This document shows, in pieces, positions 30,415 through 38,184 of a stretch of 64,000 bases of DNA; position 1 is the first letter of the stretch, and each line of letters begins with the position of its first letter. This stretch comes from Escherichia coli (GTDB lineage: Bacteria > Pseudomonadota > Gammaproteobacteria > Enterobacterales > Enterobacteriaceae): NCBI RefSeq assembly GCF_050920415.1, contig NZ_CP169309.1. The stretch is one strand, 5' to 3'. The notes under the pieces were generated by a model, which worked only from the letters and a program-made list of their open reading frames with translations, ran no database searches and was not told where the DNA came from. Position numbers and translations under genes: made by a program.

Positions 30415-31268
30415 GCACCATCCTGAAATGGGCGGGAAATAAAACCGCCATTATGTCCGAACTGAAAAAACACCTTCCTGCTGGCCCGCGACTGGTTGAA
30501 CCTTTCGCGGGTTCCTGTGCTGTGATGATGGAGACGGATTACCCCAGCTATCTGGTTGCGGATATTAATCCTGATTTAATCAACCTCTATAAAAAGGTTG
30601 CCGCTGATTGTGAATCGTTTATATCTCGCGCCAGAGTTTTATTTGAGATCGCAAACAGGGAGGTGGCTTATTACAACATAAGGCAGGAGTTTAATTACTC
30701 CACTGAAATTACTGATTTCATGAAAGCGGTATATTTCCTGTATCTCAATCGTCACGGTTACCGTGGTTTATGTCGCTATAACAAGAGCGGGCATTTCAAC
30801 ATTCCCTACGGTAATTATAAAAATCCGTATTTCCCTGAAAAAGAAATTCGCGCATTTGCAGAAAAAGCCCAGCGGGCAACGTTTATCTGCGCCAGCTTTG
30901 ATGAAACGCTGGCGATGTTGAAGGCGGGGGATGTGGTGTATTGCGATCCGCCGTATGACGGCACGTTTTCCGGTTATCACACTGACGGCTTCACTGAAGA
31001 TGACCAGTATCACCTGGCATCCGTTCTTGAACATCGGTCATCAGAAGGACATCCGGTCATTGTTTCTAACAGTGACACATCCCTGATCCGTTCGCTGTAT
31101 CGCAATTTTACTCACCACTACATCAAGGCAAAACGCAACATCGGTGTGGCAGCTGGCGAGGGTAAATCAGCAACAGAAATCATTGCTGTTTCCGGGCCGC
31201 GCTGCTGGGTGGGATTTGATTATTCGCGTGGCGTGGACAGTTCTGCCGTGTACGGAGTACGTGCATGA
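30411..31268 (+). CDS. dam: DNA adenine methyltransferase (Dam-type, N6-adenine)
   Basis: ORF from [38 protein letters not shown]... with catalytic DPPY motif (VYCDPPYDG); ATGA overlap with the preceding gene. Confidence 0.85.
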
Positions 31269-33679
31269 GTCATGCCGATATGAACAACTGCTGCGGCTTT
31301 AACGAGGCTACCGCAGCATTCTCATGGAACAGCCCGAAAAAGGCCATTAACCCTTATCTGGACCCGGCGGAAGTTGCGCCGGTTTCTGCGCTTTCAAACC
31401 TGATCACTCTGTACGCTGCCGATAACGAGCAGGAACAACTGCGCCGTGAGGCACTGAGTGATCAGGTCTGGGAGCGTTATTTCTTTAATGAATCCCGTGA
31501 TCCTGTCCAGCGCGAAATGGAGCAGGATAAGCTAATTAGCCGGGCAAAGCTGGCGCATGAGCAGCAGCGTTTTAATCCAGACATGGTCATTCTGGCGGAT
31601 GTCAACGCCCAGCCTTCCCATATCAGCAAGCCGCTGATGCAACGTATTAAATACTTCAGCAACCTGGGCAGGCCAAAGGCTTATTCCCGCTATTTGCGTG
31701 AGACGATTAAGCCATGCTTGGAACGACTGGAGCATGTACGCGACAGCCAGCTATCTGCATCTTTTCGTTTTATGGCAAGCCATGAAGGGCTGGACGGTCT
31801 GCTGATCCTGCCTGAAATGAGTCAGGATCAGGTGAAACGCCTGTCCACCCTTGTCGCTGCGCATATGAGCATGTGTCTTGATGCCGCTTGTGGTGATTTG
31901 TACGCCTCCGATGATGTTAAGCCGGAAGAAATCCGCAAGACATGGGAAAAGGTGGCAGCAGAAACCCTGCGACTGGATGTCATACCGCCTGCGTTTGAGC
32001 AACTCCGCCGGAAAAGAAACCGCCGCAAACCTGTGCCCTATGAACTCATTCCGGGTTCGCTGGCGCGTATGCTGTGCGCCGACTGGTGGTATCGGAAATT
32101 ATGGAAGATGCGTTGCGAATGGCGGGAAGAGCAGTTGCGTGCTGTCTGTCTGGTCAGCAAAAAAGCATCTCCCTATGTCAGCTATGAAGCCGTGATGCAT
32201 AAACGTGAGCAGCGCCGTAAGTCGCTGGAGTTTTTCCGTTCTCATGAACTGGTGAACGAAGACGGCGACACGCTGGACATGGAGGATGTGGTAAACGCCA
32301 GCAGCAGCAACCCTGCGCATCGCCGCAATGAGATGATGGCCTGTGTTAAAGGCCTGGAGCTTATCGCGGAAATACGCGGTGACTGCGCCGTTTTCTACAC
32401 CATCACCTGTCCGTCACGTTTCCATTCCACGCTAAATAACGGCAGGCCCAACCCGACCTGGACAAATGCGACGGTAAGACAAAGCAGTGATTATCTGGTT
32501 GGCATGTTTGCTGCATTTCGTAAGGCGATGCACAAAGCCGGATTGCGCTGGTATGGCGTGCGGGTGGCTGAGCCGCATCATGACGGTACAGTTCACTGGC
32601 ACCTGTTGTGTTTTATGCGCAAAAAAGATCGCCGCGCCATTACTGCTTTGTTGCGTAAGTTTGCCATTCGTGAAGACCGCGAGGAGCTGGGGAATAACAC
32701 GGGACCACGCTTTAAGTCTGAGTTGATTAACCCGCGCAAAGGAACGCCGACAAGCTACATCGCGAAATATATCAGTAAGAACATTGACGGGCGTGGTCTG
32801 GCTGGCGAGATCAGCAAGGAAACGGGTAAATCCCTGCGTGATAACGCTGAATACGTGAATGCCTGGGCGTCTCTGCATCGTGTTCAGCAATTCCGCTTCT
32901 TTGGCATTCCGGGGCGTCAGGCTTACCGTGAACTGCGATTGCTGGCTGGTCAGGCGGCAAGGCAACAGGGTGACAAAAAAGCAGGTGCGCCGGTACTGGA
33001 TAACCCGCGCCTTGATGCAATCCTGGCTGCTGCTGATGCTGGTTGTTTTGCCACCTACATCATGAAGCAGGGCGGCGTACTGGTTCCCCGTAAATATCAC
33101 CTCATCAGAACCGCTTATGAAATCAACGAAGAGCCAACCGCCTATGGCGATCACGGTATTCGTATTTATGGCATCTGGTCACCCATTGCAGAGGGCAAGA
33201 TCTGCACTCATGCAGTGAAGTGGAAAATGGTTCGTAAGGCCGTTGACATTCAGGAGGCGGCAGCCGACCAGGGCGCTTGCGCCCCTTGGACTCGTGGCAA
33301 TAACTGTCCCCTTGCTGAAAATTTGAACCAACAGGAGAAAGATAAATCAGCTGATGGGGGCCCCAGAACGGACTTTACCCGCATGGATGACAAGGAGTTG
33401 CACGATTACCTGCACAGTATGAACAAAAAGGGGCGCCGGGAACTGGCTGCAAGGTTACGTCTGGTGAAACCGAAACGGCGTAGAGACTACAAACAGCGAA
33501 TTACAGACCATCAACGACAGCAGCTCGTCTATGAACTGAAATCCAGAGGATTTGATGGCAGCGAGAAAGAGGTCGATTTACTCCTTCGCGGCGGCAGTAT
33601 TCCGTCAGGAGCAGGCCTGCGTATCTTCTATCGGAACCAGCGTTTGCAGGAAGATGATAAGTGGCGGAACCTGTATTAA
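31265..33679 (+). CDS. A: Replication initiation protein (P2 gpA-like rolling-circle endonuclease)
   Basis: 804-aa ORF in the gpA position of the early operon; size and context match P2 A / 186 A. Confidence 0.8.
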
Positions 33680-33774
33680 TTACGCTGGTTAACAATTCGT
33701 GCTCTTAATAATACCAGGCATATCAGGCTGATAAGCGTAAAAAAAACGTTTTACATCAGTAAGATTATTATATA

Positions 33775-33790
33775 CTGTAAATATAAACAG
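33775..33790. promoter_or_regulatory. LexA (SOS) box CTGTAAATATAAACAG
   Basis: Perfect CTGT-N8-ACAG palindrome 44 bp upstream of the 33834 ORF. Confidence 0.65.
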
Positions 33791-33833: not shown

Positions 33834-34022
33834 ATGCAGGACTATTTTTTGGAGTCTTTGAAGCTCCAGCGCATTGATTTTTTTCTTAAGCTTGTAGCGG
33901 CTAGTGAGTGTAGTGATGAAGAGAAGGGGCTGGCTCTGCAGTGGGTTTCTGAATTGACTGATGAACTCATGGCAAAAATCAGAAGCCACGAATACAACCG
34001 CTCAATGGATGTCATCAGCTGA
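33834..34022 (+). CDS. Small protein in Tum-like antirepressor position (62 aa)
   Basis: First ORF downstream of the LexA box; stop overlaps the RBS of the DinI-like gene. Confidence 0.45.
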   Translation: MQDYFLESLKLQRIDFFLKLVAASECSDEEKGLALQWVSELTDELMAKIRSHEYNRSMDVIS

Positions 34023-34032
34023 GGTGACTTTT

Positions 34033-34266
34033 ATGCGCATTGAAATAATGATCGATAAAGAGCAGAAGATTAGCCAGTCTACCCTGGACGCCCTTGAATC
34101 CGAGCTTTACCGCAATCTGCGCCCCCTGTATCCCAAAACGGTAATCCGTATCCGTAAAGGTAGCTCTAACGGTGTGGAACTGACCGGACTGCAACTGGAC
34201 GAAGAAAGAAAACAAGTGATGAAAATTATGCAGAAGGTGTGGGAAGACGACAGCTGGCTGTATTGA
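34033..34266 (+). CDS. DinI-like protein (Tum C-terminal-domain-like)
   Basis: 77-aa ORF MRIEIMIDKEQKISQSTLDALESELYRNLRPLYPKTVIRIRKGSSNGVELTGL...VWEDDSWLY resembles DinI (MRIEV...WESADDWF); GAGGTG RBS. Confidence 0.7.
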   Translation: MRIEIMIDKEQKISQSTLDALESELYRNLRPLYPKTVIRIRKGSSNGVELTGLQLDEERKQVMKIMQKVWEDDSWLY

Positions 34267-34379
34267 TTTTGTCAATAGACGCTTGTTTTTACTAATCAAA
34301 AAGGGTTACATATGAGTGAGAGGCGATGTCAATCAGATATCGCCTTGTTTTTTGTCAAGAAAAGAATAATAGGCTAAAA

Positions 34380-35057
34380 ATGAAAATTAATAATGTAGCG
34401 TTACCAATATCTCTTGCTGTAATCCTAACTGGTTGCGTGCCACATGCTTCTAACCGAAATATCACTGCTATTGAAGTGGTGAAGCCTGCTATTGGGCAAA
34501 GTGCTACCGCCTACATGGGCGATCCCATTATCACATCTGCTACTGGATTTAAAACGGACGTACTAGAACTTGGTGCGGCTAATGGTGCATTGTCTTCTAT
34601 CGCTGCTGGTACATATTGCAGTGAGGGGAATGGAATTTACCGCAATTATCATAACCCTCAAGCTGTTGCGTTAAAAAATCTCTATGGGCAAATCGGTAAC
34701 TATGTTGATTATGTTAGTTACGATGCTGCAAAAAATGAGATATCACCGCCAAATGGTACTTCTTATACTGCATCAGAAATTTCTATCAAACGTGTTCCTG
34801 ATGGGCTGTGTCGAGTTAGTAACTCATTGGTTAAGACTATCGAATACAATGGAAATGCAGGCGGTGTAATGAAGTTCACCTATCGTGAATTTGCAAACGA
34901 TATGGCTCGTGCAGCATTTACAACAGATTTTTCTGTAGATTCTAAGGGAAGTGACGTTATCGCTTACAAAGGTGCCAAGTTCAAAGTGAACAAGGCTGAT
35001 AACTCGTCTATTTCTTATACAATTATTTCTGGCTTTGACAAGGCTGTCACGTTCTAG
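34380..35057 (+). CDS. Predicted lipoprotein (cargo gene between replication module and cos)
   Basis: Start at MKINNVALPISLAVILTGC... with lipobox LTGC; 225 aa; followed by a terminator. Confidence 0.65.
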   Translation: MKINNVALPISLAVILTGCVPHASNRNITAIEVVKPAIGQSATAYMGDPIITSATGFKTDVLELGAANGALSSIAAGTYCSEGNGIYRNYHNPQAVALKNLYGQIGNYVDYVSYDAAKNEISPPNGTSYTASEISIKRVPDGLCRVSNSLVKTIEYNGNAGGVMKFTYREFANDMARAAFTTDFSVDSKGSDVIAYKGAKFKVNKADNSSISYTIISGFDKAVTF

Positions 35058-35160
35058 GTTTCACGCTTACTGAGTATGTTACGATTTTGCACATTCTGCA
35101 TAAGCGCGCATGTCTATGCTGCATGAGATCGCATGATCGTTTGAGGATCTTTTGTGTTAA

Positions 35161-35186
35161 GGCCCGCCAGTTCTGGCGGGCTTTTG
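35161..35186 (+). terminator. Rho-independent terminator after lipoprotein gene
   Basis: ggcccgccagttctggcgggcttttg: stem gcccgccag/ctggcgggc plus T-run. Confidence 0.55.
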
Positions 35187-35230
35187 CGTAGATCATGCAG
35201 GTGCATGAAAACCACTACATAAAGCGGGCA

Positions 35231-35249
35231 GGCGTGGCGGGGATACGAG
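35231..35249. other. Candidate phage cos site
   Basis: GGCGTGGCGGGGATACGAG resembles my recollection of the P2/186 19-nt cohesive end (GGCG[A/T]GGCGGGGAAAGCA-); memory-based, not verified. Confidence 0.3.
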
Positions 35250-35374
35250 CGCGCGCTCATGGTTGAATTAATGAAATTATGGTGTTAAATAGGCTAGCTT
35301 TTTAAGTCGTGAATATTTGTCAACGCCAAGATTATTGGCCGTTTTTCGCCATTTTTAATGTCCGCTATTGGTCA

Positions 35375-36171
<797 letters not shown>

Positions 36172-36174
36172 AAC

Positions 36175-37338
36175 AGCTCCTCATAGGCACTCAACGGCCT
36201 GTGTTCCACCTGACTGACCTGCTGCCAGAGTGGGGCGTGATGCTCCGGCACGGTCTGCCAGCCGTATACAGCCGAACAGAGACGGTGCGATGCTACCTGT
36301 TGCTCATTACTGTAGATCCGCAGTTCATCATCCAGCGAGATCCGTATTGATACCGGCTGGCCACACAGGCTTTCCGGCACGCTGTAACGGTTCCCGCCAA
36401 CCTCGATATAGCCATCCCAGGAGACATGACGGATATCGAAGTAGCTGGTATCGAAGTCCGTACCTGGCAGCGCCTGCAGATGCACCTGTTCCTGCGTGAA
36501 GCGCTGTTCCGGTGTCTGCCTGAACTGGCGAAGTCCCGCCTGTCGGCAACGTCAGCCATCCACTGCTCCAGTAGCTGATTAACATGGGCGAAGCTGTCGA
36601 ACCGGCGGTACCGGACGAAGAAGTTTTCCTTGAGGTATTTCACCATCCGTTCCACCTTACCTTTGGTTCTGGCCCTTCGTGGACGGCAGGCCCGTGGCAG
36701 GAAGCCATAGTGATGGCCAGCAGCAGGAACCCGGAGTTGAACACCACCTTCCCGTTGTTATTTTTCAGCACTGCGGCTTTCTGGTTATCGACCAGCACGG
36801 TTTTCACGCTGCCGCCGAAGTAGCGAAAGGCGCGGACCAGTGACTCATAGGTATGTTCAGCATCCTGCTTTGGTGCCGCGAAGACATGGAAGCGACGTGA
36901 GAACCCCAGCGTATTAACCGCGAAGTTAACCCTGCATCGTTGCCCGGCAACCTCAGCCTCAACTTCTCCCCAGTCATGCTGTAGCTGGTAACCGGGCTGA
37001 GTTTCGAAGCGAACCGTTTTCTTCGATGGCCGCATCTTACGTTTGGGCTGGATGTAGTAACGCAACATGGAACGGCCACCGGTATAACCCATCGCTTTGA
37101 TTTCCGCCAGGATGACCTCGCCGTTCCAGACATTCTCAGCCAGACGCATGTCGATATAGTCCATGAACGGCTTGAGTTTGGCCATTTTGTGGCGTGTTTT
37201 TCTGGCCGGAGGTTCCGGGTATTTCAGGTACCGTCTGACAGTCCGCTCAGAGCAACCAACCTGAGTGGCAATATCAACAATATACGCACCTTGCTGGCGC
37301 ATTTGCTTTATCATGTAAAAGTCCTCTCTGCTCAGCAT
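36175..37338 (-). pseudogene. istA: IS21-family transposase IstA, frameshifted
   Basis: N-terminal 232-aa fragment (36640..37338, HTH region MIKQMRQQGAYIVDIATQVGCSERTVRRYL) followed by C-terminal pieces in other frames (36168..36655). Confidence 0.7.
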
Positions 37339-37485
37339 GAGTGTTCCCTTTGTGGTGTAGGAACCTTAAGGAAACAACATGTTGGGTGGAGCGGACAATC
37401 CAAATGGTGAATTACTGTCTTATATCATTGGCGCTGACATATTCAATTTTTCAACTCATTTTTTTCATAGGGAGGAGTAATTGAC

Positions 37486-38184
37486 ATGGTTATGTTAGTG
37501 GATGACTGTCCACGATGTGGATCACAAAAAATAGCGTTTGATGTTAATGGGCTGAATTGCACTAGGGTTTACAATGCATTGGGCGGGGGTAAAACATACG
37601 AGTACGAGGTCTATTGTGTTTGCCGAGAGTGTCATAAAACGACAATGTTTCTTTGCAGACCTTTAACGAAAAATAAAACTTTAGATGGCTATAATTGGGA
37701 AAGTGGAATATTCGGCTTAAAGGAAGTTGCAGAGGTTGTTAGGCCTATATCACCGGCAGACTTAGCAGTAGAGGAGCCACCAGAGTTCTTACCTGAGCAT
37801 ATCAATAGTGCATATGAGGAAGGGGCGAAATGTTTGGCTATAGGTTGTTATAATGCAGCAGCAACCATGTTTAGGCTTTGCCTTGATTATGCCACAAAAG
37901 GACTTCTTCCTGATGGGGAGCAAGGGCCTGCGCAAAAAATAAGGAGAAGCCTAGGGTTAAGAATGGAGTGGTTATTTGATAATCATCTACTGCCTGAAGC
38001 TTTAAGGGAACTAGCTGAATGCGTTAAAGATGACGGAAATGATGGAGCGCATGAAGGTATTTTGGATAAAGCTGCTGCTGAGGATCTTGAAGATTTTACC
38101 TATCTTTTTTTAGAACGGCTTTACACTGAACCTCAACGCCTTATCGAAGCCAAGACAAGGCGTGAACAAAGAAGAAACAAATAA
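37486..38184 (+). CDS. Hypothetical protein with N-terminal zinc-ribbon (CPRCG...CRECH) and C-terminal DUF4145-like helical domain
   Basis: 232-aa ORF with GGGAGGAG RBS; Cys4 cluster in first 50 aa; C-terminal region resembles DUF4145 (domain assignment from memory, unverified). Confidence 0.6.
   Translation: MVMLVDDCPRCGSQKIAFDVNGLNCTRVYNALGGGKTYEYEVYCVCRECHKTTMFLCRPLTKNKTLDGYNWESGIFGLKEVAEVVRPISPADLAVEEPPEFLPEHINSAYEEGAKCLAIGCYNAAATMFRLCLDYATKGLLPDGEQGPAQKIRRSLGLRMEWLFDNHLLPEALRELAECVKDDGNDGAHEGILDKAAAEDLEDFTYLFLERLYTEPQRLIEAKTRREQRRNK

Follow-up and report, generated by a model that had tools for sequence, protein, structure and literature searches.

A lipoprotein gene cassette in the SOS operon of a 186/Fels-2-like Escherichia coli prophage as a candidate envelope exclusion factor

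Llp of phage T5 and Cor of phages phi80, N15, HK022 and T1 are superinfection-exclusion lipoproteins that inactivate FhuA, and in their mature form these proteins are about 60 amino acids (aa) long. TraT of F-like plasmids and Bor of lambda, likewise lipoproteins carried by mobile elements, confer surface exclusion and/or serum resistance. Here we describe a gene whose product is similar in size to TraT. It occupies positions 34380-35057 of a 64,000-nucleotide (nt) stretch of Escherichia coli DNA (contig NZ_CP169309.1 of assembly GCF_050920415.1; the whole stretch is called the window below), encodes a predicted lipoprotein of 225 aa and lies in a prophage of the 186/Fels-2 type, recognised by CI, CII, Fil and a LexA-controlled Tum/DinI. 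The gene appears to be an AT-rich cassette of one gene, acquired horizontally and lying at the right end of the prophage within the SOS operon. Of the functions considered, we tentatively favour the exclusion of incoming phages or other mobile elements at the level of the envelope.

The closest described arrangement is that of phage 186. In the 186 record NC_001317 the promoter p95, annotated as 'SOS-dependent transcription of SOS operon' and provided with a LexA site, is followed by tum, by t95a ('partial termination of p95 transcript'), by orf97 ('expression from plasmid blocks 186 infection') and by t95b, and cos is annotated at the start of the record. This SOS operon (p95-tum-t95a-orf97-t95b) is attributed to Brumby et al. 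1996 where it is cited in PMC5322425. A second described system is the cos-proximal region between gene A and the portal gene (Q), a defence hotspot known from old and tin of P2 and validated by experiment (Rousset et al. 2022; Vassallo et al. 2022). The lipoprotein gene sits in this A-to-portal hotspot, adjoining cos, at a place that is variable among relatives. The elements from the SOS promoter to cos are the following.

33775-33790, plus strand: LexA box CTGTAAATATAAACAG, overlapping the promoter-like sequences TTTACA (33750-33755) and TATACT (33771-33776)
33834-34022, plus strand: open reading frame (ORF) of 62 aa, first gene of the SOS operon (phrog_698, unknown function)
34033-34266, plus strand: DinI-like gene (phrog_189, RecA filament binding protein DinI)
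34265-35107, plus strand: cargo cassette of 843 bp, the segment that differs between prophages with and without the lipoprotein gene
34320-34353, plus strand: hairpin of 11 bp followed by a T-run, 27 nt upstream of the ATG, found by terminator scan and folding
34370-34373, plus strand: Shine-Dalgarno-like TAGG, 6 nt upstream of the ATG
34380-35057, plus strand: lipoprotein gene, 225 aa, beginning MKINNVALPISLAVILTGC
34434-34436, plus strand: codon of Cys19, the predicted lipidation site, behind a signal peptide formed by aa 1-18
35159-35187, plus strand: backbone terminator with an 11-bp GC stem followed by UUUUG (-26.3 kcal/mol, z = -4.05 by folding)
35231-35249: cos, a 19-nt cohesive-end region GGCGTGGCGGGGATACGAG whose first 13 nt match the annotated 186 cos

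The preliminary description of this stretch, in which no database searches were made, had recognised a 225-aa gene with a classic lipobox lying between the replication/Tum module and a candidate cos, and both statements were borne out. The classical PROSITE-type lipoprotein rule was tested, which asks for a basic n-region, an uncharged h-region, a lipobox of the form [LVI][ASTVI][GAS]C and a Cys at position 15-35. It describes the window protein well (K2, uncharged PISLAV, lipobox ILTG/C with Cys19) and also holds for 102 of 130 homologues; the lipobox Cys column itself is retained in 121 of these 130 diverse sequences. The protein is predicted to be a Sec-exported lipoprotein of the signal-peptidase-II type. 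Position +2 is occupied by Val in the query and by A, V, S, T or another residue in the 121 Cys-bearing homologues, with Asp in none of them. According to the +2 Asp rule, which is established for E. coli lipoproteins, the lack of Asp at this position leads us to infer that the Lol system would sort the protein to the outer membrane in Enterobacteriaceae. The mature protein (207 aa, 22 kDa) is all-beta in the structure model and contains Cys80 and Cys144. Among the 130 aligned sequences both of these cysteines occur in 34, neither in 85, the first only in 11 and the second only in none, and their pairing fits a periplasmic disulfide in one subfamily.

In comparison with homologues of 79-96% identity, pN was 0.016-0.125 and pS 0.21-0.81; where dS could be computed, dN/dS was 0.04-0.07, with synonymous sites near saturation. 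The gene is real and under strong purifying selection. Public records disagree on its start. The Fels-2 record (NC_010463, 4947-5678) and UniProt entry A0A5T4R8C1 use a 243-aa frame that begins at ATG 34326, whereas RefSeq records for E. coli begin at the 225-aa start. A relative from Buttiauxella has a TAG that closes the 243-aa extension but keeps the TAGG and the MK... start, and ATG 34326 falls within the upstream hairpin. For these reasons the 225-aa start was taken as correct, and the 243-aa start in the public records is probably wrong. The Shine-Dalgarno-like TAGG(G) is kept in the Buttiauxella locus and also in a further locus, L026.

The LexA box at 33775-33790 is the sole perfect CTGT-N8-ACAG within the 64-kb window, and together with the promoter-like sequences (33750-33790) it appears to be the counterpart of the 186 p95 SOS promoter, whose annotated LexA site occupies the equivalent position. 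The 62-aa ORF, which precedes DinI in every P2-like locus examined, showed no BLAST similarity to the N-terminal half of 186 Tum. The product of the DinI-like gene is 41% identical to residues 71-145, the C-terminal half, of 186 Tum (E = 3e-24), and it is this gene and the 186-like cos at 35231 that bracket the lipoprotein gene as the preliminary description had it. The DinI and lipoprotein products of Fels-2 are 99% identical to those of the window, and in published data the Fels-2 DinI/tum-like gene STM2727 is the top, most significant entry of the LexA-regulon table, being 5.5-14.8-fold up with the SOS-inducing mutagen MX.

The hairpin between the DinI-like gene and the ATG belongs to the cassette. 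It is retained in Buttiauxella, where one G-C pair has become T-A by a compensatory change and another has become G-T, and we propose that it acts as a leaky terminator corresponding to 186 t95a. Between this hairpin and the ATG no usable or convincing sigma-70 promoter was found by the scan; upstream of the hairpin, weak promoter-like hexamers (TTGTCA ... TACTAA) were read by eye, and these may serve as an alternative, weak promoter of the lipoprotein gene. The presence of the upstream hairpin argues for expression by read-through from the SOS promoter, as in 186, rather than for a self-contained constitutive unit, and read-through is the route that we infer.

The cassette has a GC content of 39.7%, compared to 52.3% for the prophage, and a GC3 of 0.31, compared to 0.57 for gene A. 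Its flanks (34033-34264 and 35108-35257) align to E. coli prophages that have no lipoprotein gene: among 5,426 complete E. coli genomes the flanks were matched in 1,279, the lipoprotein gene in only 49. In E. coli GF66.2 the interval from DinI to cos is 83 bp long and has no gene, and in E. coli B and APEC 16-1068 it holds unrelated small ORFs on the opposite strand (phrog_17127, 110 aa, and phrog_7437, 140 aa, respectively). The slot was thus found empty, filled by phrog_17127, by phrog_7437 or by the lipoprotein gene, or, in phage 186, by orf97. Presence in one and absence from another of collinear phages, combined with a deviant base composition, agree with a moron in the sense of Hendrix/Juhala. 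With regard to an own promoter, another mark of morons, only the weak hexamers were seen, upstream of the hairpin, and the downstream terminator is part of the backbone (see below).

The order A, orf62, DinI, lipoprotein, 177 nt, cos was invariant in 40+ P2-like loci, the cos motif being found at a fixed +177 nt after the lipoprotein gene in all of them, and the distance from cos to portal varied by more than 2 kb across the same loci. Taking into account that the order from A to cos is fixed and the length from cos to portal is variable, the familiar hypervariable hotspot of this lineage lies beyond cos. The DinI-to-cos interval appears to be a second, smaller variable cargo site within the SOS operon, separate from the cos-to-portal hotspot.

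The gene had also been credited with its own terminator and placed in the P2 old/tin slot, of which the first needs correcting and the second is right in part. There is indeed a strong hairpin at 35159-35187, but it lies, together with cos, in a conserved block (35108-35257) that is also present in prophages lacking the lipoprotein gene, and it must therefore be regarded as a backbone element. It would end the transcript before cos, as the functional counterpart of 186 t95b. As to cos itself, the 13-nt sequence GGCGTGGCGGGGA at 35231 is identical to the first 13 nt of the 19-nt 186 cos GGCGTGGCGGGGAAAGCAT, and the context CATAAAG(C/T)GGGCA upstream of cos is common to the window and 186; the P2 cosR is GGCGAGGCGGGGAAAGCAC for comparison. 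With respect to the slot, the gene lies between gene A and portal gene Q and adjoins cos, as old and tin do in P2, and is in this sense inside the hotspot. However, Old and Tin are cytoplasmic, and their genes have a promoter of their own that reads leftward; in this lineage the highly variable segment is found past cos, towards the portal gene, whereas the lipoprotein slot is smaller, separate and inside the SOS operon.

It is the architecture of phage 186 that the window repeats element by element. The lipoprotein gene, like orf97, occupies the slot between a LexA-controlled tum and cos, with one hairpin terminator approximately 27 nt upstream of the ATG and another terminator ahead of cos; the two products are similar in size (243 aa for Orf97, 225 aa for the window protein), and both are envelope proteins, the window protein by prediction. 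In contrast to this parallel in position, the sequences are not similar (BLASTP E = 3.8), Orf97 belonging to phrog_3403 and the window protein to phrog_1353. Orf97 has hydrophobic N-terminal helices which, as read from its sequence, suggest an inner-membrane anchor, whereas the window protein has a lipobox and a predicted outer-membrane location. It is 186 orf97, a gene of the SOS operon, and not P2 old/tin that is the closest precedent and positional counterpart of the gene.

Fels-2 (STM2726), E. coli HS (EcHS_A0921 / WP_000700647), 24 Klebsiella P2-like phage records and most of the 47 IMG/VR loci recovered encode this protein at 99-100% identity, and every database annotation of it reads 'hypothetical'. 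WP_000700647 is listed in the table of hotspot arrangements (supplementary file 6) alongside partners such as AIPR, again as 'hypothetical' (Rousset et al. 2022). In the literature no functional study was found for STM2726, EcHS_A0921 or WP_000700647, their sole mentions being in the operon list of a microarray study and in a supplementary table. The gene as such is therefore already known, as a database hypothetical listed uncharacterised in a published hotspot table; new here are the boundaries of the cassette, the corrected start, the reassignment of the terminator to the backbone, the parallel with 186 orf97 and the SOS operon, the negative tests of membership in known families, and the size and mobile-element context of the family.

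A search of the PHROG families (E <= 1) assigned residues 1-223 to positions 1-230 of the 230-position profile of PHROG 1353 (phrog_1353, unknown function) with E = 3.1e-105; the only other matches were two marginal families of unknown function (E = 0.038 and 0.67). By HMMER against 1.84 billion representatives (E <= 0.001) the family comprises 1,456 clusters at 50% identity, spanning Proteobacteria, Nitrospirales, Bacteroidota, Planctomycetes and spirochaetes. Its members are mostly 210-240 aa long, and longer homologues (341-381 aa) have an expanded middle region with no recognisable extra domain. Conservation is strongest in the C-terminal approximately 80 residues, with the motif IEYNGxxGxxLxFTYREF...MAR.AFTTDF..D.....YKGA...V..A.N..I.Y.V..F. 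Klebsiella, Salmonella and E. coli prophages with only 88-94% identity in their A and portal proteins encode lipoproteins that are 100% identical, which suggests either a recent exchange of the right-end block or an unusually strong constraint.

Searches for known relatives gave no functional assignment, be it from Pfam, NCBIfam, PADLOC, PDB sequences, BFVD or AFDB50. Pfam yielded no match for the query even at E <= 10 and none among 130 family members, NCBIfam gave noise only (a polysaccharide lyase model at E = 0.02), and the profile searched against all PDB chain sequences (E <= 1) produced signal-peptide-level matches only. The AlphaFold2 model built from the 130-sequence alignment is a confident all-beta structure (pLDDT 91.3, pTM 0.77). 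With this model BFVD returned nothing at E <= 0.001 and AFDB50 only entries named 'Lipoprotein' or 'Uncharacterized'. A GfcB/YjbF label on one AFDB50 entry is probably a mislabel, as no family member matches any Pfam family, the YjbF type included. Membership of the Cor, Llp, TraT, Bor or Ltp types was ruled out by the homology and fold searches.

Homologues at 27-57% identity are single genes in or beside unrelated mobile elements, in the contexts below.

Citrobacter prophage with a serine recombinase: homologue near an OLD-family nuclease gene
SSU5/pHCM2-like phage-plasmids (E. coli, Shigella, Citrobacter, Klebsiella): homologue near Phd/Doc and GNAT toxin-antitoxin pairs
Acinetobacter siphophage: homologue within the tail module, beside a toxin-antitoxin pair
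Shewanella: homologue in a region with phage-type genes
Marinomonas: homologue in an integrase/MobC element
Pseudoalteromonas: homologue in a VapE/AlpA island
Methylotuvimicrobium: homologue at an IS-flanked position

In 15 genome loci and several contigs no conserved gene neighbour was found, apart from the Vibrio pairing described below; several distant homologues are on contigs too short to show their context. Nearly all contexts that could be read show family members as single-gene cargo in or next to mobile elements.

Taken together, the mobile-element context, the nearby defence and toxin-antitoxin genes, the location in a validated defence region and the block of infection by the non-homologous protein that fills this slot in 186 are the reasons why we favour a function in keeping incoming phages or other mobile elements out at the envelope; it is the most likely of the functions considered, although our confidence in it stays somewhat short of even. 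In the mechanism envisaged, the hairpin would be leaky and read through from the SOS promoter, so that the lipoprotein would be made at a basal level in lysogens and in a burst at induction. At the envelope it would bind an outer-membrane or periplasmic component that is needed for adsorption or DNA entry, and exclusion would then proceed in the manner of Llp, Cor or Orf97 without relatedness to any of them. A more specific form of this proposal, in which the SOS-wired lipoprotein closes the envelope to competitors at lytic commitment and Orf97 is a convergent occupant of the same slot, seems to us rather unlikely.

A number of observations weigh against exclusion. P2 and 186-type phages adsorb to lipopolysaccharide (LPS), and it is not obvious how a lipoprotein on the periplasmic side would block this receptor of the carrier phage itself. 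No homology or experiment ties the PHROG 1353 family to phage exclusion, and the defence models of PADLOC-DB v2 gave 0 families at E <= 1 for the lipoprotein. The upstream hairpin may be an efficient terminator, in which case the gene would be poorly expressed. The published induction concerns STM2727 only, STM2726 being merely listed in the predicted operon. A single LexA box (at -235, on an Edwardsiella plasmid) was seen in the 400-bp upstream regions of the homologues in other elements, which shows SOS coupling to be a property of the 186-type slot and not of the family. The P2 hotspot houses cargo other than defence genes as well, for example partition systems and cytolethal distending toxin (Rousset et al. 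2022). Finally, each system validated in the screen of Vassallo et al. 2022 was confirmed to be without effect on adsorption; for the same reason that screen is uninformative on adsorption blockers.

Among the alternatives, an envelope factor that benefits the host, by protection against complement or serum, colicins, type VI or contact-dependent toxins, or lysozyme-like enzymes, is possible but on the unlikely side. The breadth of the family, 1,456 clusters in several phyla, exceeds any single phage-receptor pairing. Its members stand alone without a conserved partner, as is often the case for orphan immunity or inhibitor genes, and virulence cargo is also found in the P2 hotspot. Moreover, on the Vibrio parahaemolyticus plasmid NZ_CP010886 (3447-4678) the first base of a homologue of 28% identity is also the final base of the stop codon in a gene for a small porin-family outer-membrane protein. 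The overlap suggests a two-gene operon, and it was the only hint of a partner outer-membrane protein seen in the family. TraT and Bor would be the models for such a factor: like them, the window protein is stand-alone lipoprotein cargo of a mobile element with an outer-membrane location, predicted in its case. Unlike TraT and Bor, which we take to be Pfam PF05818 and PF06291, neither the query nor any of the 130 members has a match to these or other Pfam families, and the predicted all-beta fold has no PDB relative. A protective factor made constitutively would not be expected behind an SOS promoter, and nearly all readable contexts are on or beside mobile elements, several of them adjoining toxin-antitoxin or defence genes.

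A second alternative is that the protein acts in the lytic cycle after SOS induction, remodelling or masking the envelope so that progeny are spared from debris and vesicles, or tuning lysis and release, instead of defending the lysogen. We regard this as decidedly unlikely. A gene directly behind the antirepressor homologue in the SOS operon should reach its peak expression at induction, and the 100% protein identity between prophages of three genera, with A and portal proteins at 88-94%, is in line with such a role. In T5, Llp protects progeny from the receptor on debris. The timing is possibly similar, Llp being produced shortly after infection according to 10.64898/2026.03.26.714494 and the window gene being part of an SOS-induced operon. 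However, in most related prophages the slot is empty or otherwise filled, which argues that the gene is dispensable for the lytic cycle, and the homologues elsewhere are not SOS-linked. In addition, the lysis genes of P2-like phages are located elsewhere in the genome.

It is very improbable that the protein is a divergent member of the Cor/Llp group blocking FhuA or another TonB-dependent receptor from the periplasmic side. The preliminary description had named Cor and Llp as examples and advised a search for relatives of this kind; when the search was run, none was found among the PHROG families, the PDB sequences or the fold matches. All that it shares with them is the category: lipoproteins that phages encode, that lack Asp at +2 and that presumably reside in the inner leaflet of the outer membrane. 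There is no homology or fold similarity to Llp or Cor, the PHROG matches were limited to phrog_1353 and the two marginal families of unknown function, and the PDB profile search gave nothing above the signal-peptide level. The mature protein, with 207 aa, is about three times the size of Cor or Llp, and its carrier is a P2-group myovirus with LPS, not FhuA, as its receptor. Finally, a chance or decaying reading frame without function, for which the 'hypothetical' annotations and the lack of a known domain could be cited, is almost certainly not what we are dealing with, being refuted by the dN/dS values at saturated synonymous sites, by the conservation of lipobox and C-terminal motifs over 1,456 clusters and by the confident structure model.

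If the protein is an exclusion factor, a widespread new family with its own fold would join a very short list (Cor, Llp and few others). Such a factor would have been missed by defence screens that discard adsorption blockers or test cytoplasmic systems only, and it could alter the host range of therapeutic phages: the carriers are Peduoviridae prophages of Klebsiella, Salmonella and E. coli, including those of ST258, ST11 and ST512 Klebsiella strains. It would also provide a first handle on a large lipoprotein family of mobile elements (at least 1,400 clusters at 50% identity) with a fold that is not in the PDB. The slot between tum and cos would link the expression of its cargo to DNA damage. 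Should there be no phage phenotype, the gene would be an ordinary conserved hypothetical gene of lysogenic conversion.

The remainder of the prophage, and the elements between cos and the portal gene, are as follows; the names of the prophage genes were transferred from the collinear annotations of E. coli HS and Fels-2.

approximately 26.8-28.5 kb, minus strand: integrase and CI of the prophage
31265-33679: CII, Fil, Dam and gene A of the prophage
35318-37439, minus strand: ISEc62 (IS21 family), 68 bp past cos and outside the cassette
37486-38184, plus strand: gene for a DUF4145 protein of 232 aa (phrog_1305), in the variable cos-to-portal hotspot
from 38193, minus strand: portal and terminase genes of the prophage

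The DUF4145 gene, annotated as such in E. coli RM10740, is a candidate defence gene: its product has a weak, partial match to the PADLOC model PD-T7-4 (E = 1.2e-6). It is a neighbour and not a partner of the lipoprotein gene, because the cos-to-portal segment differs among loci in which the lipoprotein is identical. A 232-aa gene that follows the Citrobacter prophage homologue was considered as a match of the window's 232-aa DUF4145 ORF and proved to be unrelated; upstream of the same homologue an extended -10-like sequence, TGGTATGAT, was read.

The ISEc62 copy, just upstream of the DUF4145 gene, may affect the expression of this gene. It is 98-99.8% identical to annotated, intact ISEc62 copies, has the terminal repeats TGTCAACGCC / GGCGCTGACA and is bordered by a 4-bp TATT duplication; its flanks are 100% identical to an uninterrupted prophage locus in IMG/VR (L049). 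In the window copy istA is broken into frames of 232 + 120 + 105 aa and istB into 119 + 137 aa, which could be decay or a sequencing error. The insertion makes the genome of this phage, whose packaging limit is tight, 2.1 kb longer.

Outside the prophage, the chromosomal flank at 12000-26000 (the ypjA / autotransporter region) was only 94-96% identical to its best match among the 5,426 complete genomes of E. coli, whereas matches of 100% to the prophage are present in IMG/VR. The host may belong to a divergent Escherichia lineage.

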